From assembly GCA_000934665.2 (NCBI GenBank), contig KZ537995.1:62001-126000 (forward strand): DNA of 64,000 bases. The letters are read 5' to 3'. The stretch comes from Catajapyx aquilonaris (Eukaryota). Below the pieces are notes generated by a model. It was not told the origin of the DNA and did no database searches. It saw only the letters and a list, made by a program, of their open reading frames with translations. The position numbers and the translations under genes were made by a program. This document shows positions 34,401 through 63,659 of this stretch, in pieces; position 1 is the stretch's first letter; every line of letters starts with the position of its first letter.

Positions 34401-37400
34401 TTCTTGCAATTTAAATTTTGAAGTACGTACACGGGTAATGGACCACCTTTTATGATCATGCTGAAAAATGCAATACCTTGCTTTTTAATAATAGCTGGAA
34501 GGTAATGTTTCACATGGAATGCAATATATTATAAATTACGCCGTTACTGGGGTTTTTGTGATGAACAACGGTGTTTTACTTGATCATAAGCAGACACAGC
34601 GTGATGTAAATATGAAGTTTCAAAGAGGAAACAATTGTGTTTTTTCTGTTAATTGTGGTTAAATATCAATGGCCTTCACTGTTCATTATACGTACTTTCT
34701 TACAGTATTGTTGCTCAGCTACTATAGAAGTGGATGCGAAAATAGATTGCAGCAATAGTCTCTTCCTGTTCGAATTAACAGTTTCATTTTTGGCACACTG
34801 CAGCAGCATGTTTTATGAAAACCTTCACGTTCCCGAATCAGTAATTAGCGGGATACTTGATGAGCCGTGTTATTCTTGGCAACTTCCGGGAAGAGTCCAA
34901 TTCCACATTTAAATATTGTTTACGATGAAGAATGACACGGGAAATTGGACGTTTCCGTAAATTTTGGCATCGTCTCTCTCTCTCTCTCTTCATATACTAT
35001 CTTCTCTCTCAAGCGTGATATATTTTTTTGAAAAAAATAACAAAATGGGTTGAAAGACGAGACTAGATCTTGAGAATGTTCTTGTTGGCAGCAGTTTAGC
35101 CAAGTTCGCTGAATTCAGAGGAGACGGAAATCAAAGGGGAAGAGGAGAGACTGAAAAGGCTCGGAAACTCTGAGGGGTTGAGCAAAAAAAAAAAAAAAAA
35201 AAGAAAATTCACTTTCTTTCATTTGTGAAAGAGAGAGAAATACTTTCTTTTTGTAGAGAGTTCTGGCTCGAGAATGGCCAGAGGGTGAAAAGGGCAAAGG
35301 GTATAGGTTAATGTCTCGCATTAACATTTTGCTCCCGTAATAATATGTATATACTCTTCACCGCAATGCACTTGGGAATAATTTTCATTTACTTGAAAGA
35401 GTAGCCCCCTGTAAATTAGGCAGTCAGTTAGTCAAAAGAGGCTGATGGGTCGCGTGCATATCAGGATGAAATTTGCGCACAACTTTTTCTTCCTATAACG
35501 ATTGAGGTTATTTGCATTGAGAACACATTACGTGCTCAGTCTGCCAATTAACAAAAATTACGTGATGATTTCGTTTGAAAACTGTGTGGACTATGTTAAT
35601 TTTCACGTTGTATTTTTTAAATGTGAGGAAACGTACAGAATGTATTGATCAAACATTTGTGGAAGACTCTGTACAAAATATTTGCGAATTTATCCGAAAT
35701 ATTTGTGCTACTTTTTAAACTCTACAACAAATTTTCTCCCACGTGTCCTAGGGTGATCTACACGTGCCCACCCACTTATTGGTTATAAAATATTCGACCG
35801 TATAAAAGCGTCAGAAAGTTTGCACGTAGACCTCATCCGTGAAATGTATTTTGGATTGTAAAAAAAAAAGGAGGGGAGGAAAAACTGTCGTTTAGAGAGA
35901 GAGAGATTGAGTACATTTTGGGCCTGGAAATCCCTCTTTATTGGGCAGCTAACACTGTGTGCCTACCTTTTGGTGGCTGGAAAAATGTCAGAAAGGAGCG
36001 GGGGGGGGGGGGNGGGGGGGGGGGACCTGCTGAATTATGGTTTTCGGGAGGCGAATAATGTTAAGGCTCCGAGTGAAGAATGTTAGAGGATGAGGAGATT
36101 TATCGTCTCCAGTGAGACGATACATTTTTTGGGCTTATTTTTTTTTACCCAGGTAGTTTTTTGGCTTGATGGTGCAAAACTTGAAGCCATTTATGTGATA
36201 AAACGTTGGTTGCATTTATGCGTTTCCATTCTTTCCAGGTTGCGGGAACGGAAAGTACCTGAATGTGAACCAAAGTATCTTCAAGATAGGATCGGATCGT
36301 TGTGCTGCACTCACGGAGATCGCTCGTGAAAAGGAACATGAGGTGAGCATTAAATAAAATTTATGGCTGTTTTGACGCCGGTAATACCGACCCGAGGAGA
36401 ATAACTATGTTCATTAAAATCCTCTGAAATAACTCCCGCTGATCTCTTTGAAGTAGTTTCAGGATCCTTCCAAACGACATAGGCAGGATTCCATTTTGCC
36501 CTTGCAAAGACACGTAACTTGTCACAATGAACCCAGATTTTCTGAAGATCCTTCAAAGGGAGAGAGACGTGGAGTTCCTTTCTGTACTGAAACTTTCTAT
36601 TGTGTGTGCTTTTTTTTATGTGTGCTGAAAATGCGTGTTGAGGAAAGAACAAAGTTTTTCGCGCATCGTCCATATTGGATGGAACATTGTGCACGAAAAA
36701 AAAAACGGAAAATAAAGTTTGAGGGAAAAGATGAGCTCGTGTTATCCTCGCAGGACGACGACCCATCTATGACGATCCGTGACGATATGACTGCTTCCAA
36801 ACGACATCTTTTTTTTGTGCCCGTCGTCTGGAGTAGATACGACCATCATTCGGCTGCCATTCGATTTACGGGCCCTTAATGTCGATTTTTTTTTTGTGGT
36901 GGTGGTGGTGGTGGCCTGGAGCTTCGGACAGTGTCAGGGATGATACGCTGGGATATATCCAGGGTTGTAGAAACCTGAAGGTGGCGTCTCTGGAATTAAG
37001 GGCCTGCCTTTTGCAGAGATTCATGCTTTGATAATAATTACTCTTTAATGGCTTCCGCGTGCTTGTTTTCAGAAGAAATAATGGAGCGGAAGTAAGTATA
37101 TGCCAGATTTGTGAAGTAAACTCAATTTTGGTCCGGTCTCGCTTTTGCTTGTTGTGTCCGCCGCCTCTGTTTGCAATAAGCGGTAAGCTATTGTCGTCTG
37201 ATGCAGGAAGCGTATCATATTTTTTTGCTTGACAATCCGAGCTCAGGACACTAATTAAAAGCGCTGTACCGCGTTATAGTATAAACGATCACATTCGAAT
37301 CGATCAGGGTTTGGTAGCGAACTGACCAAAAATCTACAGTATGCCGTCAATTGGGGGTGAGATTGTGCCAGGTGGGGTGAGATTGTGCCATCGAATTTTT

Positions 37401-40400
37401 GGACAACAGTGAGCCCTACTAGCATGTTCTACTACACATTGAGGGATGGTCAAGGTTGTCAATCACAAGTAAAATTCGCAGTAGGGTGCAATGTTGTCCA
37501 AAAATTCTCTGGCACAATCTCACCCCAATTGACGGTATACTTTAAGATCCAGCAGCATGCTGTTCTCAGAGCCTTTTGTTCTTCATAACACGATATGTCC
37601 GAGAGAGAACAAAAATAGTCATGTCAGCTTGTTCATCCCTGGTAGGAAGCACGATAAAGACCTAACTTGAAATCTGTTTTTGCGAGGCTTATCTCCGGAT
37701 AAGATCCGGGTAATACGCTGCATTATCTCTGGGAATTGAGCGTGCATGTCGAGCACAAAAGGGGAGGGTAGATGGGTATGGGGGGTGATGCCAGCTCTAG
37801 TTTCCAGTGCTAATCAAAGCGTAAGCAAAACCTCCGCCGGTTTTTGCCGATATATAGTTGGAAGCCATAACGATCCGGTAGATTTTCATGGCACATCCGG
37901 CGCTCTTTTGACTCTTTATGGTATATATAGCACTGATTTTTTGACAATTAATTTCCTGCAGCAAGTGCTAGTTTGCGACAACCTGGCTCTGCCTTTCCGA
38001 GATGAGAGCTTCGACGCTGCTTTGTCCATCGCGGTCATCCACCATTTTGCCACCACTGAGAGAAGAGTGGCGGCTCTCAGGGAATTGGCACGGGTACTGC
38101 GCATCGGAGGAAGACTCATGATTTCGGTATGGGCCATGGAGCAGAGACACAGGAAGGTAAGAGAGAGAGAGAAGAAAATGTCAAGTTGTAACCCCCCCCG
38201 ACAGGAACATCATCTACAAAGCAATCTCCTGGAAAACACGAGTTTTTATATTTGGGTTTCACACCCTGCCGACAGAGTCATTTGTAGTTTTTAAAGGTGG
38301 AACTACTGTAGAATCTATTTCTGTCTGGAGATTTCAAAACTAATCTCGAAACAATTCGGAGAACAGAGCGGGAAGGAATTTTTTTCTTCTTCATCGCGGA
38401 TTCCAATTTCCCCCCCTTGGAAATTCTTGTAGAAGGAACCTTTTTTTTACCGCCCCTCTAGGCAATTCTCAAGCGAATCCAAAAGGAAACGACTCACGTT
38501 CTAATGTACAGTGTTTCCGTTCCAACACTTTTTATACCCATTTTCGCCATCCCGGATATTCCAGGTGAAATGCCACGTGGCTCACAAGAAGAATCGGCTC
38601 AGAAATTGAGTTTGTGCCTTCCATGGCCTTTAAAAAATGTAACATCACGTATCCCGATAATTCGCTATAGCAAACGCCTACAATTTTAAATAAGGCACCG
38701 GAGAGCAATAATGATTTAAACAGCTCATGCTTCCAGCCAATATTTTTTTTCCGAGCATTAAAATTAACCATTTTACTGTTTCACAAGTGCATTGTGGCCC
38801 CCTGTATCAGGAGGCTAATTCTGCTAAAAATCCTCACAATCGGTTCACAACGGGGGAGTCGTAATTGGTGAAAGCTTAATGACTCTGGCTGGGCTGTGTT
38901 GGCAAAGTTTGTGTAATTGCAGCGATAATTAAACCTTCGGTGGTTTTAATATTAGGTGGCGCATTCCGCATTGGGGAATATTATTGCCCGGGAATAGTTG
39001 CAAATACGTCTGCACTTTTTTTTTCGGTATGTGCCAAACACCCCCCCGGTTTAATTACAACGCGTTTGTTCAGTACTGTCGCTAGAAACATGCCTCGCTC
39101 GATCTGGAGATGGGATGATTGCCAGGGATCATCGTATAATGATCCTCTGCAAAGGCTGATCTTCCCCTAATGAAACAGCGACGAAATTGCGCCGATTCCG
39201 CCATGTTAACTCACGGAGATTTCGCCTTTTGTATTTGAGAAAAGCCTCCCTAATTGAAATAGACCCAATGTTTTTTTTTCGTTAGCGGAAAAAAAACAAG
39301 TAAACGAGAGGAGGAGAAGGTAAACAATGCTGGGGAGTTTGGAAAGAATTTTTTGGAGGAGGTTTGGCACAAGTGGAACGTAACAAAGGGGGGCGAAGTT
39401 AGAGAGAGGCCAAAAGGAATTCGAGTCACGATTTGAAAGTTTGCAACCTGCCTCGCCTGCTTACATGGTAGTAGAGTTTTTATTTATACGCCTTACCCTC
39501 CCCTGGATGGAACGTGAGTGAAAATACGGAGCTGCAGATTTTTGTCGATTTCTCTTGAAAATTTCCAATGTTTGTTCCTTGCGGTGTTTGGCTCGAGCGG
39601 CAATAATTTGCTAAACAATCATGCCTATATTTTGTAGCATTTTGCGCACGGGAAAAGCCTGCAATGCGGACATAAGTTTTTAGCATAAATATTTCATCAG
39701 CCAGACTTGTGCAATTGTAATATTGTTCACGCGTGTTGAATTGAGTTCTTTTTTTGCGTTAAAAATTCACATCGTTTAGGTAAGGTCTCAAGAGATTATA
39801 TGTAGCATTGTCAAGAACAAAGGACTCTAGTACATGCACAGCCCCTGAGCAATTCACACGCGACATCATGTATTTCAGGATTTTAGGATTTAAAACGGGG
39901 CCAGCTGCTGTGTTACAAAATAATATAAATGTAAATTTGTCGAAATTATTAGTGCTGAATGTTACACCATATGGGATGACATCACGTTGCGCGTGGCATG
40001 AACTTGTATTCGAACCAGTTAACATATTGTTTTGCGAATTCAAAATCACAATCTTTCAATATAAATTACTATACATGACTGTGAAATGCATTTCAGTTTA
40101 ATATGCAGCGCGTTTCAGTAAGCGAGACACGCTTTGTTACGTTTGCTGTCTGTTGATATGGTTTCAAATAGCAATGACATAACATATTGGATTGTGTGTC
40201 GGAATTGACCTTCATTATACCAGCGCCACATTTTTAAATTAAATTGTACAGTACTGTATATTTATATTGTATATACTTACACAGTTATGTATAGTACGAT
40301 AAAATGTGACCTAGTGTTCAATTTAAAGTTGTACCTGTATGTCACGTTGTACAGTGTCGTACCCTAATTTATACCTCTTTTAGGCGCGCAGTAAACGAGT

Positions 40401-43400
40401 ACATAAATGAATTTTGAAAATTTCATCGCATTAAAATTCTCCTTTGAGGCCGAGTAATTTCTTTGCATTATGAAATAGTAAAAGCAACAAACCGTGATAA
40501 TTGCATCATACTCCTAACTCCCAGGACATACTTGCATTACAGTCTGGTCGGAGCTTTTGTGAGAAAAGTTTGTTATAATTTATTTTTGTCATGTCACAGT
40601 CTATCATAGTTGGAGTCGCCAAATTAATTTCACTTTCGACTCATCAGCTTTCAAGGGCAAAAAAAATGCAGATCGAATCTAATCTTGATTTCCTTCTGAA
40701 TCTCAGATTGTTTTTTTTTTCTCCCCGTCTCTCTATCTATCTTCTACTCTATTCAGCTATTCTGGAACGCGGCGGAGAAAAGTCATCGCTCACCTAAGCA
40801 GTCAGATAGGATGCACCAGCCTTTTGCCAAATATCGAAGCCCGCATTTTTTTCCCCCACCCCCTCCTGCATCCCTACCCTGCAGGCAAAGCTTCCCCAAC
40901 CTCCGGTAATCGTCCACTGGGACTATGATTGATGGCCACAGTGACCGCAGCCTGGAAAATGGCGATGGCCTCAGAGGGTTAATGGCGGTGCATTTAGTCC
41001 AAATAAATCCAGCTACAGTTTGTGCGGTGTATACAGAGCACCTGCTTCCGAATGTGTCCGTCAAATCGATACTAAAGGCGAGACTGGTATGCTGTGGCCC
41101 CTGCTTTTCATTCACTGGACCAAACTCTGCACCAAAAAAAAAGCCAATGTCAGCAGCATGGGAAGGGTCACATTCCTGCTGCCAAACCTTGCACGAGTGA
41201 AATGTAATGTATACCACATGCTATTCTCATCCGTCCATTCAACGCAGCTGCTTCTCTTTCAATACTTATGTAATATTTTGAAACTATAGTAGGCCTACCG
41301 GATAAGCGGACCCGTTGCCATATTTTGGTAACACGGCTTGGCCCACCCCCGAACTTGTACGTAGTACGATATGCCACTACCAGTTGGCCCATAATGCTCT
41401 CCCTCTGAATACTCCTGCCACTCTCAGGGCGAAAGTACTACATGCACGTTGGTGATGAGTCACTGCGCGGACAAAGTCCACCATAGCGCTGTACTACTCT
41501 GTCCTCTAATTGTTGAACGGGGAAAGTGATACGTGATGAGTCCACTTGTTTACGGAATTCTGTATAATTATGATAATGATAATGATTGTTATTCAGTTTT
41601 TTAAAAAAACTACAGGGCAGCAAAAATAATGATATTATTGTAGAAATACACAGAAAAAAAATCGGATCCGGTATCGACGACTTGGGTGTTGTTTGCTGAT
41701 CATTAATACTCGAGTCACGTACAACGGAGCCAGATGTCAAAATGCACGAAATTGGTGTTCCAGTTCGAATCCCAAGATGTGCTGGTTCCGTGGCACAGGC
41801 CGCAGCAATCCAGCAGCGACGACAAGACGTCGTCGATCGAGCGAGACCTGAACTCGACCACGACGTCCGACGACGACGTGACACACTACCACGCCTACAC
41901 GCAGACCTCCGACAGCGACTCGTGCCAGTCCGCCAGGTACATGCATGACATGGTGGAGAACCTTACAACGACTATTGGTTCCTTTTTTTAAAAAATTCTT
42001 CTTCCCCTTGCAGGCATGGTTGCCGAAAACGAGGTCGCGGTCGTCACAAAGGCCGGTCCATCGACCCTTCTTGTCCCAGCAGCTCTCAGAGCAGCTCGGA
42101 TCTCTCCAGCCCAAATGAGACCTGTTATAGTTTCGTCAGGAGAGCCCTGCAGGTAAAAAGCATCGATTCAGTATGTTCCTTTTTCCCCCCCTAAGATCCT
42201 CGGACGTATAGAGCTCATCTGTGGGGCGTTACCAAGTTTGTGTAATCGACTGGGCGTTTGACTTATAACTGGCACTTAATTTTAACACCTTGAACTGAGG
42301 CAATCTATAATTGAATCGGAGGGCAGTTGCGTCTGTTTCATTGCAGATAAATGGCCCTCTCGTTGCAACTGATGTAGTGTGGTTGTCTTGCCCGCGCCTC
42401 ACCGATTTCTGTTACTTTTATCCTGGAGACAAAAGAAAAGGAGGGGGGAAAAAAATGTCCACAATATAGAGAGAGAAGTTTTGGGAGGGTAGAAAGAATC
42501 GGGGAGGAAGATGATTGTCCCGAGAGAGATCCTGGCCTGGAGCCAGGCGAAGATCACCCCTTTCCAAAAAAGAAAAAGTGTGCTTTGATTGGTGGAGCGA
42601 CCCACCACATAACGGGGGGGTCCGAAATTTTATGAAGCTATCCCACAGGGTACGACCCTTTCTTCAATCCTGAGGATTCACACACAGGGATCAATTTGTT
42701 ATCATGCCTCGAGGCAGATTCGTCCAGGAAAATATATCTGAATACCAAATATTGCTGTTGTATATCCATGTGTTTGATTACATGTTGGGGCGGTGTCCGG
42801 GGCCTGTTTGCAGAAGCTGGCTGGAGGAAAGAGGAACGTGGGTGGCCGCAGCAGACCGTGGTTCCTCCAGAGTATGGACGGAAACAAAGGCTGGAATGGG
42901 GTTGGCAGAAGCGGAGGATCTGGAGGAACCGAAGATGAGAGGCAGACTAGCCAGGAAAGCACTGAGAACATCGAGGACCTTCCGATCGAACTGAGGAGAT
43001 TAGACGGCGAGGACAACTCAGATCATGGAGGTCAGACTTTGGCTATATTGTACACATTCCGACTATAGAAAGGCTCTAAGAACAGCGTCGCCAACTTATG
43101 ACGATTGGCTGGAGGAATTTTGGATTTTTTTACGTGTCCGCCATCTTGAGCTCCTAAAGTGGCCGGCTGTGACGTCACAGTCGACTCCGATTGGCTGATA
43201 GGACCGTGACGTCACAGCCGGCCACTTTAGCAACGCAAGATGGCGGCCACCGTAGGACACGTAAACAGTCCATAATTACTCCAGCCAATCAGAGACAACT
43301 TGACGTCAGAAGTTGGCGACTCTCTCTCCCTCGAGCCTCTCTAATTCCGACTGTTTAAAACAACAATCAACCATTGTTCAGATTCGATAATGCCGGTGGT

Positions 43401-46400
43401 GCCATGCGGTCAGCGGAGGAAGACGTTCACTTCGGCGCCCCGTTCGTCCGAAGAGCAGTCCGTGACGTTGAACCAGAAGTCGAAGAGCTTGAGTGACATC
43501 CTGAGCGTGTTTCCTGTCGGTTTCCTGAGGCATCGGAGGTCCCACGAGGAGGTGACGCCGGTGATGCCCAGCTGCAGTGCATCGTCGCTTGAGCGGCAGG
43601 ACAGTAGTAACGGAGGTATGGTGAGGTCAAAGTCCAGTGTGTCCAATCTGGCTCCAGTCGGAGAGAATGACTGGGCATCGTCTTCTCACACCATTACACG
43701 TGAATCATCTCCAGAACTGAGTAAGTACATTGGATAAAGCGAGTCTCTGGAGACATTTGACAATATTTCGTTCATTTCATTACAAAAAAAAATGCTAATA
43801 TCCTTGCTTAAAAAAAAAAACTTTTTCAAAACTTCTATGTGTAGACTACAACTGATGGCGCATTACTATTATGAACACGGCTCACAGTTCGGAGGTTGTT
43901 CATAAAATGCAAGTTATGTACAATACTTACTCCGGAGCCCGTTTACAATATAATCGAGCACGTTGAGGCTATGAAACGGACAGTTCACAAAACCGCTACA
44001 TCACACCTGATGATTGGCTTGATGGGCAGGTAGGCCTCACACCCAAATTTAAAAATGCAAATTAATTGTTTAATTGTTTACCAACAATCCACCAAGTTGT
44101 TATACAAACCGGTGATGAATTTTTACAATTAGTAACTCTATAGACAAAATACCAATCTTGTCACAGTTTTGTGAATAGCTGATTCCATTTCATAGCCAGA
44201 ACATTGACATATTGAAGACTTGATTTGCAGGACGATTAGAGTCACATGGTAATGATTTCGAGATGTAAGAATCTGTTTATAATGGACGTCCAACCATTTT
44301 CTACGCCTATTGTTCTGGTAAACATATGCCTGAAACAGCACCAAAATGTGACTCTGATTCCACAATTCAGTTCTTCAATGATTGAAACGGCACCGGAGCA
44401 AGTTTCTTCAGCACTAAAATCACTTCATCTTTTCTGAATTGTCCGTTGTGTATACTCCATCTAGGATGGTCCATGAAGCGGGAAACCAGTTCCTCATCTG
44501 TACCAACCCTGGTGACAACACCATCTCCTGCCGTCTCCACGTCGATGACGCCACCTCCCGAATCTGAGCGTCGTCTGAGCCCCGAGTGCATCCGGAGGCA
44601 CCGGACGCGTCCTCTTCTGGTGAAGCAAAAGGTGTCGATAGGACACTACGACGTGTCACCCTCGACATGCTCTCCGTCTTCTGCCACGTCCGTAACAGTG
44701 ACAGTGACCACCTCTAGGATGAGCAGCGAAGAGGCTGAGGACGAAGCAGAGTGCGAGGAGGAAGAGGAAGAGGACCAGGCTGAAGTGGAGGAACGTGATG
44801 CAACAGTGGACGAACTGCCAAGCATGCAGGACATGCGACGCATTATAGCCACGTTGCCAGAGTTCAAAGTGCGCGAGTTTCCTCTCAGCAGTTGCAGTCG
44901 GCGAGGAGCTGTGATGAAACAGAGCTCGTTGAATGAGGAGCTGATCTTCTCTGAGCGGATCAGGGAAAGAGAGAGGCTCAGACAACACATACAGAAGCAG
45001 GCGTCGCTGAACGAGGACCTGGTCTTCTCGAAGCAACAGCACCAAGGAGGATTCGGTGGACTCAGCAATGCGGAGCGTTGGGAGAGTCTGAAGGAGAGTC
45101 TGAAGCCCTTGCAGCTTCTGAGGAACGGTCTGACCAAGTTCAGGAGCCACAGTCTCGGAAGAGCGTCCAGCACCGATTCTGCGACGTCGTCCACATCCGG
45201 TGCCGGCGCCGGTACTGGCGACAATAAGGGACCGTCGTCGCTTCGGAACGGGTTTGTCCGGATTCTTCAAAGCTGGAAAAGCGAGGTTGGACTAGGCGAG
45301 ATGGCATCGTCGCCTGCAGAAGATGTGACTGTCGGCAGCCTCAGCTCCAGAAGAGGACTGTACTTCCAGTCGTTGTTCAGCAGACGAGAATCGGTCGGTT
45401 CCAGCACCGATCCGGCGTCCCCGTCCCGTAAGCAGCCTAGGCGTCCGTCTGAACCCAACCTGGACGACCTGGACATCGGTTTCGGACTGCTTCGTCCAGG
45501 AGCCAACTCTTCTGGTCTGGACCTTCTGGGTGGTGGTAGGCACGAGCGGAAGCTGTCCAGAGAGGAAGGATCGGACTCGTCAAAGGACAGCAGCTTCCAG
45601 AGTGACACTAGTGTAGATAGTGAGGATAGTTTCGCGTCGGTTATATTTGTGCCAAAGCCTGAGGCCAGAAGCGAGGCTGAGCTGCAGTTCGCCGAGAACG
45701 GACGGAGGAAGGAGAGGGCCAACTCCGCCTCCTCCGAATCTGACGGCGGCGATTGCAGGTCGCCTCCGGCCAACATCACCACCGCCAGGGGAAGGGTCAA
45801 GGAGGTCAAGCGTCCTAGTCCGGACGAACTGCTCAAGAAAACCGACTGCAATGTAAGAGTACGTTGTCCTTAAACTAATGGCTGGCGTTTGTTTCTGTCG
45901 CAAAAAAAAAAACGTGTGTACCGATGCAAGACCGATGTGATAGACATTATTTTTGTGTCTCATTTCACGGTTCGTCACACCAGCCCTTGAATCACCTGCG
46001 TCCTCACAGATTGAAGGTTTTACTGGGGCTTTTTACTCCCCAACAATATAGGTTCGCTTCATAGTGTAACCGCCTATTTAATGACGTACTTAGCCATTTT
46101 TTTCGGAAGCGACCTTTGCGAGTTGTGTGACAGCAGACTAATTAGGAGATGCCTGTGCTTGGTTGCAAGGCTTTTTTTAACTCCGATTAAAGAGAGTGGA
46201 AACGGTTTTTTTCAAACAATAAACATCACTCTAAAACATTTTAAGAGTGTTTTTCCATTCGATTTTAGTAATTCTTCACTCTTTTGCCTACTTGATTATA
46301 GTTGAACTCCCACTCTTTTTGAGTGAAAATCACTCGATTACTTGAGTGACATACATTCGCTCAGACTGAGCAATCATGTTACTCAAATCAAGTTGATTTT

Positions 46401-49400
46401 ACGCTCAATGAAAGACCACTCATTTCCACTCTTCTTTCGAGTAATTTTTCACACGATTAAAGTTAAAATATATTTCCGGACTGAAATTCACTCAAAAAGA
46501 GCATTTTGAGAAATTGCACCTTTTTTGAGTTTTCACTCGAACTTTTTAGAGAGATAAAAACCCAAGCGATTGTAAGAGCGAGTGAGTCATATAAATCCGT
46601 GAATATTCATTACAACTGTACCGGATTCGTCTCCGGTACAATTATTATTAGAAGAGCTGACTGTTAACAGAAATTATGAGAAGAACAAAAATCTCAGCCA
46701 TTATTATTTTTTACCACGGGATAAAGATGTGTCTGTGTGAACATATACCCAAACATGCGATAATCATGAGGTTTTTCCGCTGTTGTTTTCAGGGCAACCC
46801 CGAGGAGAGGACCAAAGACGTTCCAATCGTACCCCCAACCGTTGTCATTGTTCCAGCTGACCCTCCCCCCGTAGTACCCAGCACCATCCCCGTCCTGGTA
46901 GCCGAATCAACCACGACCACGGTGGTTCCCTCAGTGGTGACCACCCCTCCCTCAACGGTGGTCCACCACGACGCCTCCTCCCAGTGCTCAACAACCAGCA
47001 TCAGCAACAATAACAACAATAACAACACCAGCACCAAAGACGGCGCCGAAATCAGGCCCAACGTGTGGTCCGAAGCGTCGTTGTCCCGGTACAATGCCAT
47101 GTACAGCTCCAACAACAAGATGTCCTCTTTGCTTCTGGGTGAGAACATCGAGATCATCCACAAGCCTTGCATACCCGGAACACGCACGGTGCAGGTGGTC
47201 AGACGAAGGGTGCCCAAGTTCCTCAGCTTCGAGATCTTCAACCCGGAGACTGACGACCTGGACAGTGACTCGAGCGGTACGTCGTCGCCTGACTCGGTTG
47301 GAAGCGTCGTGAGCGTCGTGAGCGAGGCTGCTGCGGCTAAGCCCAAAGAAGAGGCCTCGGAGGAACAGCTGCTTCCAGTCGAGAGCCTCCAGGAAGACGA
47401 GGTGGCTTTAGCACCGGAAGTGTCCTCGTGTTCTTCGGCGGCAGTGGAGGCGTTGAGCGAGTGGACCGAGGCCATCGAGAAGCTCAACAAGGACATCGAA
47501 GCGGAGCAGGACGACTGGGAGGACTGGGAGAGGAAGAAGACGCCTCCGAGTCTCCTTCTGCTCAGCCCTGTTCAGAGTGCCAACAAGGCAGGCGCCACTA
47601 AAGAGAGGACGTCTCCAGCTGTGCCAACCCAGCAGAGTTTTCCTACCGCCACCAGCAACCCCACCCACGTCGAGCAAGTGAGGCATCAAAAGAGAGGGAC
47701 GTCATCCATGTCGCCTAAAGGTATATAATATAGAGACTGAAATGCATCGCTCTGTATGAAACATTATCGAAAAAGTCACTAGTGAAATAGTGTCCTTGTG
47801 TTGTGATGTGCATATTTAATTAAGGGCTAATTATTGTAAGGGGAACATCTCGTGTAAATATTCAATCCAGTGATGTGTCAGGAAGAAACGAAAAATAATG
47901 AGGCATTAAACGGGGCAAGATTGAAAATGCAAAAACAATAAACGCACCTAATGCAAATAACTCTTTTTTCACAAAATAGGTTTAAAACTCTTGCAGTGAA
48001 AACAGCAAAGAGAAAAAACTCATCAGCGAGGCAATCTGCTTGCATTAATACTACCAGGATTACTCTACAATTTACAATTCAAAATTCAATATAATATTTT
48101 CTTGTTCTGGGAATATTCTGTTCTCTCCTGGAAGTTACTGTTACTCTTGCCCAAGACTTTTGAATTTCACTTTTCTCTTTCAAGTAATATATACGTAACA
48201 AAGAGTATTTTATTGACCTTTGCATTATGAATCTCTCCAAGAACAGAAAGAGGCCGTAGTGTAAAGTCAAAAGCGAAACGATTCATGGGGGCCAAAGCAC
48301 CGAATGAGACATTAAACCAAACTTGTTGCCACGCAATATTTTATATCCACCCCACCCGGTTTATGCCATTGGGGCTGTTCCACACCCCACCCTCTGCTTC
48401 ACACTTTTTCAATGTGACGCCGCGAGAATTTCTGAATTAACATTTCCCCCCCCACCAAATGCGTCCATTCAGCACCGCAGTGCCTCCGAGACATTTTTGG
48501 CACGCCATTAATTTAGACAGCCCCCATATAATGGTGGCTATATAGCCTATAATAATACACGCACACCAGAGGAGGGGAGGAACATTTTATCACTTCCTGA
48601 TTAATATTCCGGACAAGAGGAGATGCAGGGGGCGGGAAAAAGGGGTTTTGGAAATCCGGGACTGTCTCTCTGGCCATAATGGGAGGGTATATAGGGCCAC
48701 ATGCAGGTCAGGTTTTTTGGGCAGACCGTGTGGTGAATGGGGGGGTTGGGCCCCTCCCTCTCTGCCACAGGGTTTTAAAAATCAGACGCTGCCGTAACTG
48801 CAGTTTACGTCATAGTGACGTCGGCCTCGATCCATACCTCCCCCGCTCTGCATGTACCGCTTCCTGAATGGGGGATTTTAGTGCTAAAACCGGGGCTATT
48901 GCAAAAACCGCATTGGGTTCGGGTAGGGAGCGCGATATTTCGATATATCGATGTCAGGTTCAAAAAGGCATTTTTTTTTGCACAATAAAAGTATTGAAAT
49001 AATAACATAATTCAGTTGGGAAAGAAATCAATAGATGGCGTACGCTGCTTCTTTTCGAAATTCGCAGCGGCACGACATGACGGAGGATGAGGGTTTGGGC
49101 GTCTCTCCGGACTGATGAATGGTGGTTAAATTCCCCTCCTGGGTTACATAGTATCTGATGGACAAATACAGTTGACTCCGGATATAACGAACTTCAAGGG
49201 ACCGCGGAAAAATGTATGGTATAACCGATGCCTGTTATAGCCAAATCACCCCTTTTACAACGAACACACAAGTTTTCGGCTTTCCACATGCTTATAAGGC
49301 ACACTACTGCATTATTTTATTAATGAAACTATTCACAAAAATTCAAAATAAGCTCACCCAATACCCTAAAAAAAAACGTAATTTTCTTCTACCGTCTCGT

Positions 49401-52400
49401 CCTTGCCTAATACGTATACTATAAAAAGTATGATTTTGACATTTTCTGCAAGATCAGTGACAGATCAGAAAATCACCCCAGCTTTCGTCGTATGGGCGCA
49501 TATTTTCCACCGAGGCGAGAGGCCAAAATTGGTCTGTTATAACCAACGTGAGTTGAAAATTCGTCTGTTATATCAGGAGTAAGAATACACAAGGTCTTAT
49601 AGAAGTATATGCAGCAGGGACCGGTCTTTTGAGTCTGTTATAATATCAAAGGCAATTAAAGATTATGTTTGCGATTAATATTGGACATATCGCGTGATGT
49701 TTGATACTTAAGCAATACCCCCCTACGATATGAAACTCCGGGTGTTTGGACCTCCTAGGTCACGGTCCGGAATTGCTGAGTGGCGTGTAATGGCGGCCAA
49801 AATACACGGTGTTCATGCCATGTTTAGCAGCAGGAGAACCATGCTCATTTGGCTGCTGACAAGTGGGCGGGACTATCGGGTAGTGCCATTTGACCTTAGT
49901 TGCGTTTCGGCACGCCAATAAGTCAAAGGGTTGGGTCCGGCCGCCGGTTTGCACACATACCTTCGAGGATGAAACAGAATTGCAACACACAGGGTCTTAA
50001 TAGAATGAGGCCAGTGGAACAAAGTTGGCGACCTCCTGGCATTTTCCTTCCTCAAACCGGCCAGGATTGCGCAATGCTATCGATCTAGAATTCGCGTGAC
50101 TTTAATTTTGCTCCACTTGCCATACTCCTCCGACCCATTCATTTGACATGGGTTGGCGGGGGGGAAAAAAAGCGATGGGGGGAAAAAAATTTGGCGGAGT
50201 TTTTTTTGACGACAAGAAATTGGCGGGATTGCTGGACACACGTGCTGGACACTCGTGGAGCTTTTAATTTCGGGGGGGCAACTCAACCACAACATTTTTA
50301 TAGTGCAGAACAACTTTTGTTGAACTGGGTGGTATTTATAATCCTGGGCACATCTGGACGTTGCAGACAACCCGCACAGTCTGCAGCGTATGACGTGGGG
50401 GAAAAAGACGGCTCGGAAAAAGACAAATGGGTCACAAATATTTCAGAATATAACAATTACATAATAAAGCAGGAGGTTTGTCTGTATGTCCGGGCTACCA
50501 AACCCCCTTTCGGACTACTGATAGTGCTGAAACCTGACACGCTGATGGATTTTGTGCCGCTGATTATGAGAAAAGTCCGAAAATTGCACTTTTTTAAAAG
50601 TCTAAATGTCTACAGGATTTTTCCTGGCTTACTTTACCATGGAAACAGGCTGCTCGAAGAACGGGCTCCGCTGTTAGTGTGAATAATATATAATAAAGTT
50701 TAGAATGAGCACAATGAATGTCTTCTGGACATCGATAATACTGAGTAGGCGTTTCTTGCACCAAACGTCGTGGCTATTATACTGAATGGGAAAACTTTGG
50801 CTGAATAACGTCATTGGGAAGTCGTCATTTTCAGGGGCCATTTCACATGTTTACCGTTAGGTTTCATGGCCAAGTGGTCAAATTGACTAGAACTTTTAAG
50901 GGCTCGATCCCCCAAAAGAAATTGCATTCTCTTGGAATGTCCAAAGAGGAGGCTTCCTCATTTTTTTCTTGTTTTTTTCGATCTAGAATGGTCTCGCGAT
51001 TGCGAATTTTTAGTAGTGCAGAATTTAGTTTATAAAAAAATCGTCTATTTGATGAATTTGTTTATAGTGCGCACCCATACTCGCGCAAGTCCATTGTTCC
51101 GACAACAACATTGCCACAGTTACTTCTACAGTTCGTTCCAGAGCCTTGGCAACATCGCAAAATGCTAACCCCTGCGACTCTTACCACTGGAAACAATTTG
51201 CGCGAACTGTGTTGCGCACTCGGTTGCGCTACTATAATAAGTGCGACTGAACGAAATAATTGCTATTCATTATTCTTTTACATAAAAATGGCATATTTTG
51301 AGTGATGAATCCAAATGATTCATTTTTAAGTGAACCATAAGCTTACTATAGCCCTGTGATTGCATCTAATCAGCGCATCTTTCCAGCAGGTATGCCAAGC
51401 CCAGAACCTCGTCTCCGAAGTCCGTTAGGCGGACGACAGGCGGTGGAAAGATGGCCTGAGATGAGATCTGAGCTGGAGTCCTCCCTCCTGGACTCCGGAG
51501 CCAGCACGAGTCTTCCAAATCGCCAACAGACCTGGGACTCCTTGGACACCCTGACCCCGTCCGGGTCCAGGTCCAGGTCACCCTCGCCCTCGCTCTCGCC
51601 CCCAAGAGCCAACCTCCTGGAAGCGGCAGCCAGCGTGGCCAGCTCCCTGGAAGGAGCAGTGGACGCTGTCATGAAGGCCAGTCCCAAAGCCAGGAGAAGA
51701 GGGAGGCTGAGGATGGACAGGACGCCCGAATCTTCCAGGGAAGTCTCGCCCAAAAGGTGTCCTCCAGTTCCTCCTCCTCCACCTCCACCTCCACCACCGT
51801 CGTTGCCGCCGAAGAACAAGGCTCCAGCTCCAGAGAACGCGATGATCCCAGCAGCTCCAGTCAGTTCTTCCATTCCTAGTGCTAGCGAAGGGAAAGACCA
51901 AGGAGACCCGGCGTGTCGGCAACATCTGCTCGAGTTTGCTGAAAAGCTTAGCGAACGATTACTGGCCGAGATCGAGAGCTACTCGCAGGTAAACAATGTT
52001 CAACCATTCAACGTTTGTTGGCCAAAATAGCCAGAAATATTTTTATCCTGACTGTCCAGGGCCATACTCTTGCTTCTCTTGCACAGCGGGTTGCAGGGCA
52101 GGCAGGATAAAAATGCTGAGAAGCCTAGTAAAACGCAAAATAGAGTTGACTCCGGATATAACAGACTTCAAGGGACCTGTGATGCTGTAAAAATCGCTAG
52201 TGTGACCACTATAGCATCTTTTCTTACACAGGAGACATCGAGCACTTGGAGCAGTTCGGCAGCCACGACGAAGCGTGATTCGTTCAGCCAGGATTCCAGA
52301 GGTGATTCCTTGGAATCCAGGCCGTCTGGTCGTTCCTCCTCTTCCCAGCCAACCACCTCCAAGCTGTCCCTGAGCAGCTATGTGTCCCCTTCAGACCTGG

Positions 52401-52948
52401 ATGACAACAAGCCTCGGAAGGACTCCAGCTCAGACCTCCAGACCAGCACTTCCTCCTTAGGCGAAACAGCCTTTGGAAAGCTGGAGTTCGTCGAGACCTC
52501 GTCCGAGACATCTCCAGGAGCAGTGGGCATACCGGGTGCGCCAGCTGCTCCGTACAAGAGACCGCCATTATTCTTGCCAAGGAACGGTAAGGACCACGGG
52601 GCCAAAGGGAAGAGCTCGCTGGAGCTTCTGGACGATGGTGTTCACGCACAGGAGCGGAAAGGCAGCGGGGGCGACAATAAGCGGTTGTGTGTGGGCGCCG
52701 CAGCCGCCGCAGCCGCCGGGGCGCCTGTGAGTCGCGAGACGTCTCTCAGCATGTCGACGTCGCAGGACTCTCTACAGTCGGACACTGGCGGCGCCCTTAC
52801 TTTCCACCGGTATTACCACGTGTTTCGTGAAGGAGAGTTGGACCAGTTGATTGAGAAGTACGTGGAGAATCTGCACATCATCTCCTCGTATTACGATCAT
52901 GCTAACTGGTGTATTATTGCGGAGAAGGTGCAGGTGTGGACCATTTGA
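25427..52948 (+). CDS. TRMT9B: TRMT9B/KIAA1456-like (Drosophila fid-type) SAM-dependent methyltransferase with giant internal insert, about 1674 aa
   Basis: Exons 25427-25649, 36239-36342, 37962-38156, 41764-41936, 42014-42152, 42814-43030, 43382-43720, 44465-45852, 46793-47720, 51387-51988, 52232-52948; all GT-AG and phase-compatible; 5025 nt. Trm9-family motifs [83 protein letters not shown] and C-terminal [13 protein letters not shown]...[13 protein letters not shown]. No RRM or AlkB domain, so not ALKBH8. Confidence 0.9.
37344..37535. mobile_element. Tc1/mariner/pogo-type MITE
   Basis: TIRs CCGTCAATTGGGG(G)TGAGATTGTGCCA / TGGCACAATCTCACCCCAATTGACGG; inner arms GAATTTTTGGACAACA / TGTTGTCCAAAAATTC; TA on the right flank and TG on the left. 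Confidence 0.8.
43065..43343. mobile_element. Foldback MITE with 8-9-bp TSD (Mutator- or hAT/P-type)
   Basis: The element is almost entirely palindromic, e.g. CTAAAGTGGCCGGCTGTGACGTCAC / GTGACGTCACAGCCGGCCACTTTAG and GTCGCCAACTT / AAGTTGGCGAC. Direct repeat ATTCCGACT at 43056-43064 and 43344-43352. Confidence 0.85.
46227..46553. mobile_element. Unclassified TIR element with internal CACTC/GAGTG subrepeats
   Basis: Starts CACTCTAAAA and ends TTTTAGAGAG; many internal (T)CACTC/GAGT(G) units; no clean TSD. Confidence 0.5.
49169..49645 (+). mobile_element. pogo/Tigger-like non-autonomous DNA transposon, right end truncated
   Basis: TA|CAGTTGACTCCGGATATAACGAACTTCAAGGGACC left end; repeated TCTGTTATA subterminal units and a second GGGACC near 49535-49645. 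The same left end recurs at 52143-52177. Confidence 0.6.
50457..50677 (+). mobile_element. Non-autonomous Helitron-like element (uninterrupted copy)
   Basis: TTACATAATAAAG...GTTTGTCTGTATGTCCGGGCTACC...AAAAGTCCGAAAATTGCACTTTTTT...CGAAGAACGGGCTCCGCTGTTAG|T; homologous to 8096-8560 without its insert. Confidence 0.7.
52143..52177 (+). mobile_element. Solo pogo-like TIR fragment in the last TRMT9B intron
   Basis: AGTTGACTCCGGATATAACAGACTTCAAGGGACC is nearly identical to 49170-49203. Confidence 0.65.
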
Positions 52949-57893: not shown

Positions 57894-58389
57894 ATGCCAA
57901 TCAATGGTCATGAGATTCTGGAGGTGTGCCAACAATTGGCAAGTGACAGGAACATGAGGGTGACTGTGACCCAGTCTGCGAAGGGAGGTCTCATGGCTGG
58001 GGCAGGGGCCTTTGTGGGAGGCATATGCATGGGACCTCTAGGACTTGCCATTGGTAGCGGCCATTAAATATCAGATATAGTTAATGTTGGTTATCTGGTG
58101 CGACCGTCCGTTAATGGCTATTTCACTTTCAGGAGCAACAGTAGGTGGCTTGATTGCATATGCCAATGCAGAAGAATTCAAGCCTGCTGCAATGGCGATC
58201 ATGACAATGCCTGAGCATGAGAAAGCAAGACTGATTGAATCCGTTCAACGAATCATTGCTGATCTGGACATCTCCGATGCCACGAGGCTGCTTCTCCTGC
58301 TGAACGGCAATCAGATTCTGACTGCCACCATTGTTGACGAGATCGTAGGAGTCCTGAAGCAGCATTGCGTCATGGTCACAATGGACTGA
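57894..58389 (+). CDS. C19orf12: C19orf12/nazo homolog, copy 1, 138 aa
   Basis: Exons 57894-58053 and 58133-58389 (417 nt). MPINGHEILEVCQQLASDRNMRVTVTQSAKGGLMAGAGAFVGGICMGPLGLAIGATVGGLIAY...EFKPAAMAIMTMPEHEKARL matches the C19orf12 family (MRVTV..S.KG, glycine-zipper segment, FKP...I..LP). Confidence 0.93.
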
Positions 58390-59055
58390 ACATTTTGTTA
58401 GTGACACCTTGTTGATATTATACGGTATGTTCCACCCAGTGAAAGCCAAGCTGTAACACCCTCCGGAATGTGTGTCAGTATTTTTATACACCATACTTTT
58501 TTATTAAATTTGTTCCGGAATGCAATACGATCGTGTCGCCTTTAGGTCATGTTGGACGACAACGAGCAGCAATTAAAATGAAAGATCTGTCATAAGCGGC
58601 TGGTTGCCTTTTTATTTCACATTAGCTGGCATGGTCCTGGTATTTTCTTTTCTCATTTTCAGTTTTGTAACTTCAGCATGCATTCGTCCGGTTCACATGT
58701 TTCTTCGATACGGGATTGAAATTTTGAAAGCAGAATTGATACGAGAAGAGAATCAGTCTATAGAAAATCTTACATGGTAATTCTTTAAATGTAAATTTTA
58801 CAGTAAAATTGACATCCCATTGGTACCCACAGAGTGTAATTATTGTCAAAAAGTCATTATGTTCTCTATATTTAAGCATCCTGCTTGAAGGACACTGCGC
58901 CACTGCTGCAAGAAGTGGACAAATTGCCAAATACATCTGCGGTGGTGGGTCCCACAGTCAACTGTTTATCGAGCATGTGAGAGTCTTGGACCAATCCAGA
59001 GCCACCTTTTCTGTCATATGTTCACTGCATATGCAACAGAATGAGCTTTTCCCTT

Positions 59056-59065
59056 GGGACTTTCC
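59056..59065 (+). promoter_or_regulatory. Canonical NF-kB site GGGACTTTCC upstream of C19orf12 copy 2
   Basis: Exact match to the classical kB decamer, 86 nt before the first non-coding donor (59142), with a CCAAT box at 58991. Confidence 0.6.
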
Positions 59066-60010
59066 CTGGTATCACGCCTGAAACTTTCACTAGCCATTCA
59101 CCAAACAATGATACTCTCAGGAGAGGTTCAGGACTGAAGAGGTGAGAGGACTGCCGCTTTGATTTAAAAATGTTGTACGCAGCATGTGCGTTTTAGTGGA
59201 GTACCGCTTGCTTAAGGTTGCTGACGGAGATGTACATTAATTGTTGGCAGTAATGTTCCTCACATACAAAAGATGAGGCCGTGTGACTGGTGCATGTTCT
59301 TAAACCGCCATTAGATAACGCTGAGTATGATGGTCTGTTACCAAGGAAGTTGTCACGAGATAAGGGTTTCCTGTCACTGTGACGAATGGGATGTGGCACA
59401 AGATATTCAGGTGGTGTTGATTCACTTGTCAGTTTCCAAAGTAACTGCTTACAAGTAGGTTTGTGCTCCAGAGCAGTGGTGTAAAGTAGTGTGTTGACCT
59501 GTTTCGTTGAGTCTTTGCACATTATTGCAGGTAATTTACTTTTAACTGCTGCGGCATGTGTGCAGAAATTAGTTCCTAGATATGAATGATTGGATGGTGT
59601 ATGTCAAGTTACTGGTAACCACACCGTCATGTGACCAATTTGTAATGAGCTTACTCTTAGCAGAGAATTTTCTTCTTTCACATATTCTTGGGGTGTCAGA
59701 AAGACATGCTGTGTAGATTTAGATCATTGCCAGATGTGATTGTATTGATGATTGTGTTCAGGAAAACAACAACGGTAAGCTGTATAATCCTCGATAATAT
59801 TTCACAATTGGACCCAGCTAAATGTTGTCAGATTGCTGAAAATATTGAGCGAAAATTTCAAAAGTCTAGTCACCACCATTTTTATCTGCAGGTGATGTAA
59901 TTAGGCATTAGTCATCTGCTAACAACGGACTTCTCCAAAGCTTGGTTTAAAAAACTGGCATGCTGCTTATTTCTAAATGACGATGACACAATTTATTTCC
60001 AGGTGACACC

Positions 60011-60536
60011 ATGACAATCAACAGTCATGAGATCCTGAAGGTGTGCCAGCGACTGGCAAATGACAAGAACATGAGGGTGACGGTTAGCCAGGCTCTTCGA
60101 GCAAGTCTCATCACTGGATCAGGGACCGCTGTCGGATGCCTTTTCTTGGGACCTCTAGGAATTCCCATTGGTAAGGGGTTCAGCATGACTTAGAGCTCTT
60201 GACTCAATGACTAATGGCCATTAAATATCAGATTGTTAATGTAGGTGAACCTATGCAATGATGGCTATTTTACTTTCAGGGGGAGGAATAGGTATCTTCA
60301 TTGCATGGGCCACGTCAGAAGACTTCAAGTCTGCTGCATCAGTAATCATGGCAATGCCTGAATCTGAGAAGGCGAGGCTGATTAAGTCTGTTAAGCGAAT
60401 TATTGCTGATCTGGACGTCTCTGATGCCATGATGCTGCTTCGCATTCTGAATGGCGATCAGCTTCTGACTGAGAACATCGTTATGGAGATTGCGAGAGCC
60501 CTGACTCGGCAGTCTTACAAGATCAGAGTGGACTGA
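60011..60536 (+). CDS. C19orf12: C19orf12/nazo homolog, copy 2 (divergent), 138 aa
   Basis: Exons 60011-60170 and 60280-60536 (417 nt), with exon lengths and phase identical to copy 1; AATAAA at 60604. Confidence 0.9.
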
Positions 60537-60932: not shown

Positions 60933-63659
60933 ATGGGGACCCAACTGGCCCAGAAGGAGGACGTGCTGCAGGCGGTCCTCGTGGCGGACTCGTTCAACAG
61001 GAAGTTCGGTCCGCTCGTCCTCAACAGGCCAACGGTTGGTAGCATCAGGTGGACCATATGCTTCATCAGACATAATCTTGATTATTATTTTGACAGTGTC
61101 TTCTGCCGCTGTTGAACACGCCGATATTGGATCATACTCTTCAGTGGCTGTGTGTGGCTGGGGTCCAGGAGCTTTTTCTGTGCGTTCAAAGCCATCCGAA
61201 CCGCATTAAGGACCACCTGCAACAATCGAGATGGGACAACAACTCAATGTCCGTATCCGTTATTGTGTGTGATGGAGCACGGTCTGTCGGGGATGTCCTT
61301 CGCGACTTGGATGCCAAGGGGACTCTGCGTACCGACTTCTTGCTTTTGTCCGATCCAGATGTGATATCAAACTTGCCTTTGAAGCCGCTGATGAAGATGC
61401 ATCGGGACAAATGCAAATTTGACAGATCCAATGTTATGACTGTTGTCGTCCGTAAAGCTTGTCCTGACCACCGATCACGATTGCCTGACACTGACCTTCT
61501 GCTGGTGACCCACCCTGGCACCGATCGTTTATTGCAACTACAGCATTCTAACGGGAGGAGACTGGGGCTTCCACTGGAGCTATTTCAAGAGAACCCGGAG
61601 ACAGACATTCGCTTTGATCTGAGTAACACTGGACTATCCGTATGCACTCCTGCTGTCCCACCATTGTTCTCGGACAATTTTGACTACCAGACTATGGATG
61701 ACCTGGTCAAAGGGGTTCTTCAGCATGAGGAGACTCTTGGTAACAGCATCTACCTTCATGTCCTTGAAGGTCGGCACTATGCAGGGAGAGTGACCAATCT
61801 TCGGGGCTATCATGCTGTTAGGTAACGACAAAGTGACATTACAAAGTAGTTACAACTCAGGTACAATTAATTTTGCTTTCATTACCGTGACTCATGTTTA
61901 AGTGCGTGAAGTGATTAGCAGCTTTCAATGTAATTCTTTCTGATATGTTCTGAATTTTATGTGAGCATAACGATAAATATTGGCTTTTATGCTTATCTAG
62001 TGAAAGTTCTTCATTGGAGAGAAAATAGTCGAAAGTGAGCAGTAAAAAGCGAAGTGAAGATTTCCACATGTGAAAGGGTCATAACTTTAATTCGCTTTTC
62101 TCCTCCTGTCAGTCGTGACTTGATGCAGCGGTGGGTGTATCCAGTGGTACCGGATGGAAGCTATTCCCACCATCCTGGAAATATTTACAAAGGGGACGTC
62201 CGATTGGCCAGGTTTGTTGTTTCATGCCTTATTGTTGGATTTTGAATCATAACCATATTGCTTGTAATAAACATTAATATTACGATTTATGTCCACCTTT
62301 CATACTATCGTGTTACATTATTTTTATAGCCTCTCTTGCTCGTATAAGCCAAAGTTACCTCAGTAGAATTATGTTATGCCGGACATGAACAGTAGTATTA
62401 AATGACAATGTTTTCCAGAGGATGTGTACTGGAGGAGGATGTTTTGATTGGCAGTGGGACATCCATTGGGAAGGATAGCACAATTAAGCATGCCTCAGTT
62501 GGGCGCAACTGTACTATTGGATGTGGAGTTCACATCAGCGATTCGCACTTGATGGATGGCTGCATCATTGGGGATGGGTGTCAGATCCGATCCTCTTTGC
62601 TGGCAGAAGGGGTATGCTTGGGGAAAGAGGTTAATCTGAAGTCAAATTGCGTGCTGGGCGAGAAAGTGAAGATTAAATCTGGCTGGTCAGGCGAAGGACA
62701 GCGGATGATTGCAAGTGATGGTGGATGGGCTCTGTACGAAAGCAAGGATGGGTCTGATTCCGAAGAAGAGTCAGATGGAGATCTGATTGATGCTGGTGTT
62801 GAGTCAGACAGCACTGCTAGCCACAGTGACAGGGAGGACACTTCACTTGAGGACCTTTCACTCAGGGGATCCCCAGCAATGGTGGATGACTCAAAAAGTA
62901 ATGGTTGCCAACTGAGTTAACATTACAAGATTTATTTGTTTCAGCATGTTACATCATTTTAACTTAACCTGTTGCAGTATTCAAGAGTGAAGTGGAGGAC
63001 AGCCTCACACGTGGTCTTGAAGAGCGTGTGAATTGTGAAAACCTAATTCTCGAGATCAACTCCTCCAAGTATGCCTACAATGTCTCCATGGCAGAGGTCA
63101 ACTCCATCGTCACCAAGGCTGCACTGCAGGTGTCACACAACAAGTCAGCTGCTACAACCACTCCTCAGCTGATATCCGCCATGATTGGGAAAGAAGGGGG
63201 ACTTACCTACTTCCTGCCACTCTTCAGGAACTACATCAAGAGTGCAGATTCACAGGGTCACTGCCTGGCAGCCATTGAGGTTAGGGTCACTTCATACGTA
63301 CGTCTCACTTGGGCTAATTAAATTTATTTCATGATACAAGCCTATGCAAACATTATTTTCCTTGCTTTCTGTGAGATGTCAAAATGAAGAAGCTGGTGTA
63401 GTCATTAATAATAATAATGGTTATTTTCCAACAGGAATGGTGTGCATCTGATGTGACCAGCAATGCCACTTTGCCCACCAAGATATTCCACTTTTTTTAC
63501 CAGCACGACATTCTCTCAGAAGACAGCGTTCTCCAGTGGTATCAGTCCCCTCCTGACAACCCGGATGTGGGGAACACTGTCAGGAAGCAGGTGGAGCCAT
63601 TCGTCAAGTGGTTGCAGGAAGCAGAAGAAGAAGAGGATGATTCAGATGATTCAGACTGA
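60933..63659 (+). CDS. EIF2B5: Translation initiation factor eIF2B subunit epsilon, 643 aa
   Basis: Exons 60933-61034, 61097-61821, 62113-62211, 62419-62897, 62978-63279, 63435-63659 (1932 nt). Motifs LQAVLVADSFNRKF.P, LFSDNFDYQT, RDLMQRWVYP, hexapeptide-repeat LbH region, LILEINSSKYAYN and W2 domain ending FVKWLQEAEEEEDDSD. Confidence 0.97.

Follow-up and report, generated by a model that had tools for sequence, protein, structure and literature searches.

A conserved helix in the disordered insert of Catajapyx TRMT9B as a candidate anchor for type I PKA

Near the end of the long insert that splits a methyltransferase of the nerve-enriched fire dancer/TRMT9B family in Catajapyx aquilonaris lies a short amphipathic helix, and the question that this locus raises is what the helix binds. 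An initial annotation of the window (the whole stretch of 64,000 nucleotides analyzed here) proposed that it anchors the type I regulatory subunit (RI) of PKA, which would make the protein a kinase scaffold and an enzyme in one. We find that the helix is real, conserved, and apparently undescribed, and that it is a plausible candidate for a type I PKA anchor. Our preferred reading, to which we give a probability of roughly 0.45, is that it docks on the D/D domain of the type I regulatory subunit. Several other partners could account for part of the same evidence, and we weigh them below.

The gene extends from 25427 to 52948 on the forward strand, with 11 exons joined across GT-AG introns into one intact open frame. 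Exon 1 (25427–25649) carries the start and the beginning of the methyltransferase domain, exon 2 (36239–36342) the region of the SAM-binding glycine loop, and exon 3 (37962–38156) the methyltransferase core (Pfam Methyltransf_11, E 8e-13). The N-terminal methyltransferase part ends and the insert begins in exon 4 (41764–41936). Exons 5 (42014–42152, with a conserved short helix at residues about 264–283), 6 (42814–43030), and 7 (43382–43720) belong to the insert, as do exon 8 (44465–45852), with conserved blocks at 44881–45051, 45217–45309, and 45526–45690, and exon 9 (46793–47720), with a conserved acidic/serine block at 47186–47347. Exon 10 (51390–51988) holds a conserved Ala/Leu/Val-rich helix at 51614–51673, a polyproline run, and then the candidate anchoring helix, and exon 11 (52232–52948) holds the remaining insert and a conserved C-terminal block (about 52799–52945) that probably completes the methyltransferase fold. 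For exon 11 there are two in-frame acceptors 45 codons apart, 52097 and 52232; a further one, at 52087, is out of frame and was rejected. In P0253, a relative with 85% identity over 299 columns, exon 10 is joined straight to the sequence at 52232, and the acceptor there has a good pyrimidine tract. The most likely start is 52232, from which the protein has 1673 residues, 1440 of them in the insert.

Judged from its sequence, which combines a class I SAM methyltransferase core with orthology to named fid/TRMT9B proteins, the gene is a member of the fire dancer/TRMT9B family. A search with the last exon matched 457 proteins, and several among the 120 matches listed are named fire dancer, fid, or tRNA methyltransferase 9B; the protein also has about nine insert blocks in common with the named orthologues. 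In a tree of 35 proteins made with FastTree, a quick method run without bootstrap, the Catajapyx gene lies outside the winged insects (28 proteins), together with four crustacean and two chelicerate proteins in a group whose branching is unresolved. From their open reading frames, the neighboring genes look like calnexin (1519–3771, +) and lipoyl synthase (5078–6330, −) on one side and a C19orf12 pair (58081–60536, +) and eIF2B epsilon (61094–63659, +) on the other.

The candidate helix occupies positions 51923–51982 of the forward strand (residues 1414–1433), near the 3' end of exon 10, whose GT donor lies two codons past it, and the translation reproduces exactly the 20 residues that had been quoted. 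In the numbering used for type I anchors, Phe1 is at 51935, followed by Ala2, and Ser6 is at 51950. The conserved helix is extended at its N-terminus (51914–51922, +), with Cys in position −7 and a basic residue in −6, and most winged insects keep a Trp in position −11 that the Catajapyx protein is without. The region ranks second in the insert for amphipathicity among proline-free 18-mers (moment 0.48), it has the 14–18-residue amphipathic helix that is canonical for AKAPs, and AlphaFold2 models the 32-mer around it as a single helix over residues 6–31 (mean pLDDT 90.7). In the AlphaFold2 model of the Tribolium orthologue, 927 of 1184 residues fall under pLDDT 50, indicating that the insert is mostly disordered, and the helix is among the most confident segments (pLDDT blocks of 83–89). 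The description of an amphipathic helix within otherwise disordered sequence needs one correction, as the insert contains about nine other conserved blocks, several of them helical. The full-length AlphaFold2 model, in which the methyltransferase is poorly folded (pTM 0.30), is uninformative on packing of the helix against the methyltransferase.

The helix is strongly conserved. Of 120 homologues, 95 have a best ungapped match to it with a score of at least 35, which the shuffled control (best of five per homologue) reaches in 1 of 120. Mean identity to the Catajapyx helix is 0.61 in the core versus 0.08 in each flank across 168 proteins, a set that is redundant and partly gathered through the helix itself. 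Among 70 non-redundant cores, Leu(−3) is found in 69, Phe1 in 63, Ala2 in 48, Thr2 in 22, Leu5 in 69, Ser6 in 64 (Glu6 in 1), Leu9 in 67, and a hydrophobic residue at 10 in 68 and at 13 in 58, so that the hydrophobic face on which the anchoring proposal depends is indeed kept across orthologues. Position 14, however, is Asp or Glu in 59 of these cores, and hydrophobic residues are found at 17 in 13 and at 18 in 8, which conflicts with the published anchoring face and its distal hydrophobic pair and counts against a type I anchor. The polar positions 3, 4, and 12 and His(−4) are conserved as well; these suit a different or larger interface and count against the reading in which the helix lies in the RI groove.

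A profile of 25 helices run against 1.84 billion proteins gave 53 matches: 18 previously collected, 33 further fid-type helices (four of which are short fragments showing none of the remaining fid blocks), and 2 unrelated repeat proteins. Carriers of the helix include mayflies, a damselfly, orthopterans, stick insects, a termite, a cockroach, bugs, psyllids, thrips, beetles, a lacewing, a moth, a soldier fly, a midge, and a wasp, together with mosquitoes and a sciarid, which show scarcely any variation from position −3 to 13. In bees and wasps, position 2 is Thr. The helices of two named ants score 5.1 and 0.3 bits on the helix profile; the ant-type fid proteins (P0066, P0091, and loci L010–L012) have only this decayed remnant and retain the other insert blocks. 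In six full-length proteins from non-insects (three decapods, a barnacle, Limulus, and a scorpion), nothing scores above zero. The helix matches include no named Drosophila or other higher fly, either in the search of 1.84 billion proteins or among 41 candidates scored; as dipteran helices reach only 36–46 bits, close to the cut-off, this non-match is no proof of absence. Conservation of the helix, as one of about ten conserved blocks in the insert, says that it matters and not what its partner is.

To what extent does the helix resemble known type I anchors? The available text of a 2025 survey (PMC12083921) assigns the anchoring face to positions 2, 5, 6, 9, 10, 13, 14, and 17, describes the pair Phe/Tyr1–Ala2 as nearly invariant in type I anchors, with RI binding abolished once the pair is lost, and describes hydrophobic residues at 17/18 as favored, less stringently. 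It places Tyr61 of smAKAP at position 1, so that the regulatory Ser66 falls at position 6, where the TRMT9B helix also has Ser; phosphorylation of Ser66 or its substitution by Asp blocks RI binding (PMC13025221 and PMC12203939, in the portions available). According to the accessible parts of the same two papers, type I anchors have no acidic residue at position 6 (PMC12203939), and a bulky residue at 13, a position that we infer to be equivalent to position 13 of the TRMT9B helix, is accepted by RI and not by RII (PMC13025221). The Catajapyx helix has the Phe–Ala pair and no acidic residue at 6; across the family, the strict motif is found in 140 of 177 helix-bearing proteins and Phe/Tyr–Thr in 25. 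With Phe at position 1, five of the eight face positions are hydrophobic, 14 is acidic, and 17 and 18 are polar. The likeness to RI anchors noted in the initial annotation thus stands at positions 1, 2, and 6, judged by PMC12083921 and PMC12203939, but with Phe counted as position 1 the residues at 14, 17, and 18 depart from the consensus. In a register one turn earlier, where Phe is position 5, seven of eight face positions are filled with no charge, Ser is left at 10, position 17 is Ile, and 18 is acidic; 47 of the 70 cores are likewise seven-eighths filled and uncharged in this register, which was chosen after the misfit of the first had been noticed. The synthetic RI anchoring disruptor RIAD also has its aromatic–Ala pair in the second turn (PMC12083921, available text).

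The strict pattern [FY]A..[LIVM][AS]..[LIVM][LIVM] occurs once in the whole protein. Shuffling the insert 20000 times produced it in 47 cases, and such shuffles are a less demanding null than real amphipathic helices. Homology searches found nothing further. Sequence and profile searches of the PDB with the helix matched no AKAP chain, the 25 helix members matched 0 AKAP families in Pfam, no AKAP was recognizable among the 53 profile matches in 1.84 billion proteins, and a search of the ESM Atlas for AKAP relatives gave no usable match. An RII-binding profile run on the animal's own genome had no match at the TRMT9B locus, and no homology to the smAKAP, SKIP, or AKAP110 family profiles or to solved peptides was found in Pfam and the PDB. 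A short convergent motif would hardly be expected to give a profile match, yet the lack of one leaves the proposal without independent support. A further reason for caution in reading the helix as an RI anchor in silico is that MYPT1 helices chosen in this way as AKAP-like failed to bind (10.1101/2023.04.27.538407).

The genome does encode the proposed partner. An intact Pka-R1 D/D domain (L001), 96% identical to cricket Pka-R1, lies in a single exon. Two more D/D domains are present, one of Pka-R2 type (L002) and another of the RIIa family (L003, 1438–1638, +), which by appearance is no PKA subunit and is possibly of ROPN1L or SPA17 type. The helix (32 residues), modeled without alignments in complex with two copies of the RI D/D domain, gave scores of 0.49, 0.48, and 0.49, versus 0.02 for the best of three controls; the runs agree in at least 90% of their contacts, and partner pLDDT is at least 64. 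The mark applied to this score is reached by 51 of 78 solved versus 2 of 108 mismatched pairs, in a benchmark without peptides, and in eukaryotes by 39 of 65 solved versus 2 of 126 mismatched; with a score of 0.60 or under, it is reached by only 5 of the 78 solved pairs, and by all 4 of the mismatches (of 180) that pass. Docking with the PKA-RI D/D dimer, one of the checks that had been suggested, was thus obtained in the model, but the pass lends only weak support. The PDB entries 3im4 and 5hvz share the D/D chain that the Catajapyx RI domain matches, and we take both to be RI D/D complexes with anchoring peptides. With similar complexes already solved, the pass may reflect likeness to them.

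In the mechanism we propose, the helix would fold on binding to the Pka-R1 D/D dimer, and the face formed by Leu(−3), Phe1/Ala2, Leu5/Ser6, Leu9/Leu10, and Ile13 would lie in the dimer groove. Type I PKA would then be tethered to the disordered insert, whose 1,440 residues divide the methyltransferase in two, and the protein would combine enzyme and kinase scaffold. Phosphorylation of the nearly invariant Ser6 could set the kinase free, as it does in smAKAP. The wider claim that TRMT9B is a PKA scaffold is favored by the conserved face, the RI determinants, and the weak model pass, but finds no echo in any AKAP family or structure match.

A second argument for a scaffold, the number of PKA-type sites, has less weight. 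The ten [RK][RK]x[ST] sites listed in the initial annotation are all present, among 12 in the insert, where shuffles give 4.9 (p 0.005). However, the insert is rich in dibasic pairs (35 versus 21 expected), 12 of which have Ser or Thr at the site position (8.1 expected), and strict RRx[ST] sites number 4 versus 2.0 expected (p 0.14). Moreover, R[RK]x[ST] sites have a mean of 3.9 in 14 long homologues without the helix, equal to that in 47 with it. Clustering of basic residues explains most of the excess and homologues without the helix are as rich, and we rejected the count as more than weak support for anchoring.

Several other readings must be set against a type I anchor. First, the helix could dock on a partner without a D/D domain, or could pack on the upstream helix at 51614–51673 or on a downstream helix of winged insects, its AKAP likeness then being generic to Phe/Ala/Leu-rich amphipathic helices. 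We regard this as a substantial, if lesser, possibility. With about nine other conserved blocks in the insert, conservation alone does not set this helix apart; the conserved stripe, from −7 (or −11) to 16, exceeds the 14–18 residues of an anchor, with its polar positions constrained; position 14 is acidic; no AKAP profile matches; and the Tribolium model has confident helices on either side, at 816–837 and 914–948. Opposing this, the type I pattern is found in the candidate helix only and seldom in shuffles (47/20000), and the controls of the complex model stayed at 0.02. As for packing, the Catajapyx protein keeps the helix without a conserved block between it and the C-terminal part, and ants retain the upstream helix while the candidate helix decays, so that neither neighbor is strictly tied to it.

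Second, the helix could bind a D/D protein other than PKA, of the DPY-30 type or with an RIIa domain of the ROPN1L/SPA17 type, which we consider unlikely. The helices that bind such proteins look like those of AKAPs, and four turns are enough for DPY-30 (PMC12203939, as far as available); counted from Phe1, the face here has four turns, and the third RIIa-family domain (L003) is in the genome. Counted from Leu(−3), however, the face has five, and the Phe–Ala pair is reported to contact flanking helices found in RI alone. In addition, these partners are mostly ciliary or nuclear in the accessible text of PMC12203939, whereas the fly protein is found in cell bodies and at synapses. Third, the helix could anchor PKA with a preference for RII or for both types. 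Most AKAPs bind RII, a Pka-R2-type domain is in the genome, and the Thr2 forms of bees and wasps are without the type I mark. Nevertheless, a Phe–Ala pair cut RII binding by 45% in AKAP79, and a bulky residue at 13 disfavors RII; this seems slightly less likely still. Finally, that the helix is a chance amphipathic stretch without function, or not part of the protein, is close to refuted by conservation far above that of the flanks, and, although the gene model here is known from the genome alone, the exon is open and canonical and P0253 reads through the same junction.

A type I anchor thus remains the reading we prefer, with one further difficulty from the Hymenoptera: Thr2 in 22 of 70 cores (bees and wasps), and the decay of the helix in ants despite an ant Pka-R1 D/D domain 95% identical to that of Catajapyx, both argue against it. 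A more extended account, in which the fire dancer/TRMT9B protein of insects and closely related groups is an RI anchor that predates winged insects, arose independently of those of vertebrates, has an smAKAP-like switch at Ser6, and was lost or altered in Hymenoptera, and in which the helix, if the fly keeps it, would be responsible for the methyltransferase-independent postsynaptic release activity, is in our estimation doubtful.

The rest of the insert deserves description in its own right. Several of its conserved blocks are candidates for the targeting region by which a canonical AKAP localizes its complex. The upstream helix at 51614–51673 (+), amphipathic and rich in Ala, Leu, and Val, is matched in 148 proteins, including those of ants and krill that are without the main helix; its spacing recalls, we assume, talin-type vinculin-binding helices, and a single-sequence PDB search gave no match. 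Just past the candidate helix, winged insects have a further conserved helix (P0068 residues 914–948) that the Catajapyx protein seems to be without. The block at 44881–45051 (+), kept in insects and crustaceans, has two conserved Lys-Gln-x-Ser sites around a predicted helix, which to our eye resemble CaMKII or 14-3-3 sites; human TRMT9B has been reported to bind 14-3-3. The most conserved block of the insert, at 45526–45690 (+), leads from a dibasic site through a long Ser/Asp stretch to a hydrophobic end; it is found in 62 of 62 long homologues scored, is partly kept in chelicerates, and looks like a multi-site phosphorylation cluster. The acidic/serine block at 47186–47347 (+), whose first part is nearer to decapods than to insects, has a Ser-Gly-x-x-Ser core that we presume to resemble a beta-TrCP phosphodegron.

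Among known systems, the type I anchors smAKAP, SKIP, GPR161, and the distal helix of AKAP220 have in common with the TRMT9B helix the aromatic–Ala pair, Leu5, hydrophobic residues at 9, 10, and 13, and disordered surroundings (PMC12083921, parts available), and smAKAP also Ser6. The TRMT9B helix differs in its acidic position 14, in having no hydrophobic pair at 17/18 and no detectable homology, and in its methyltransferase host. The DDIPs that bind DPY-30 or RIID2 domains likewise use a short amphipathic docking helix (PMC12203939, as accessible), but they need no more than four turns and bind no kinase, whereas the Phe–Ala mark of the TRMT9B helix points to RI. RIAD is a designed peptide whose binding has been measured, in contrast to the natural, predicted anchor here. 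At residue level, RIAD probably resembles the TRMT9B helix. Precedents for the arrangement also exist: AKAPCE of Caenorhabditis elegans is an invertebrate RI-binding AKAP, although it is a FYVE-domain protein unrelated to TRMT9B, and AKAP helices inside enzymes are known from OPA1 and Rab32.

The closest system is Drosophila fire dancer/TRMT9B (CG42261), which, like the Catajapyx protein, is an orthologous long protein of the family with a Methyltransf_11 core and a disordered middle. According to the available text of PMC10561368, fly TRMT9B works on the postsynaptic side, and transmitter release is still rescued by a form without methyltransferase activity; its authors suggest a possible scaffolding function, which favors a PKA scaffold. 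PKA and AKAP occur 0 times in that text and the readable supplements, which also leave motifs of the insert unmentioned, and the text on the pull-down, in which washes contained 500 mM salt, names TRMT112 only. The difference is that no named Drosophila protein appears among the helix matches, and a tie between the helix and the fly synapse phenotype is conjectural. The FlyBi two-hybrid tables (13 files, including the ORF primer list) contain no fid, CG42261, or TRMT9B, and their Pka-R1 rows no fid; fid appears not to have been screened, and FlyBi is thus uninformative. The main text of FlyPredictome does not mention TRMT9B or fid. Among the papers listed in the literature searched, outside which most subscription papers lie, we found no proposal that links TRMT9B, CG42261, or fid with AKAPs or PKA anchoring, in keeping with the initial annotation's impression that the helix is undescribed, and no description of the conserved multi-motif insert.

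In general, the locus bears on two problems. First, the fly has a methyltransferase-independent postsynaptic activity that promotes release (PMC10561368, available text), an open question to which a type I PKA anchor would be a concrete and testable answer. Second, type I anchors are placed at the base of vertebrates in the accessible text of PMC12083921, and the TRMT9B helix, if it binds as proposed, would add an invertebrate RI anchor to that class. The decayed remnant of ants and the Thr2 helices of bees and wasps provide a natural series of variants. Even with a partner other than PKA, the helix and its neighbors mark the TRMT9B insert as a conserved multi-motif scaffold.
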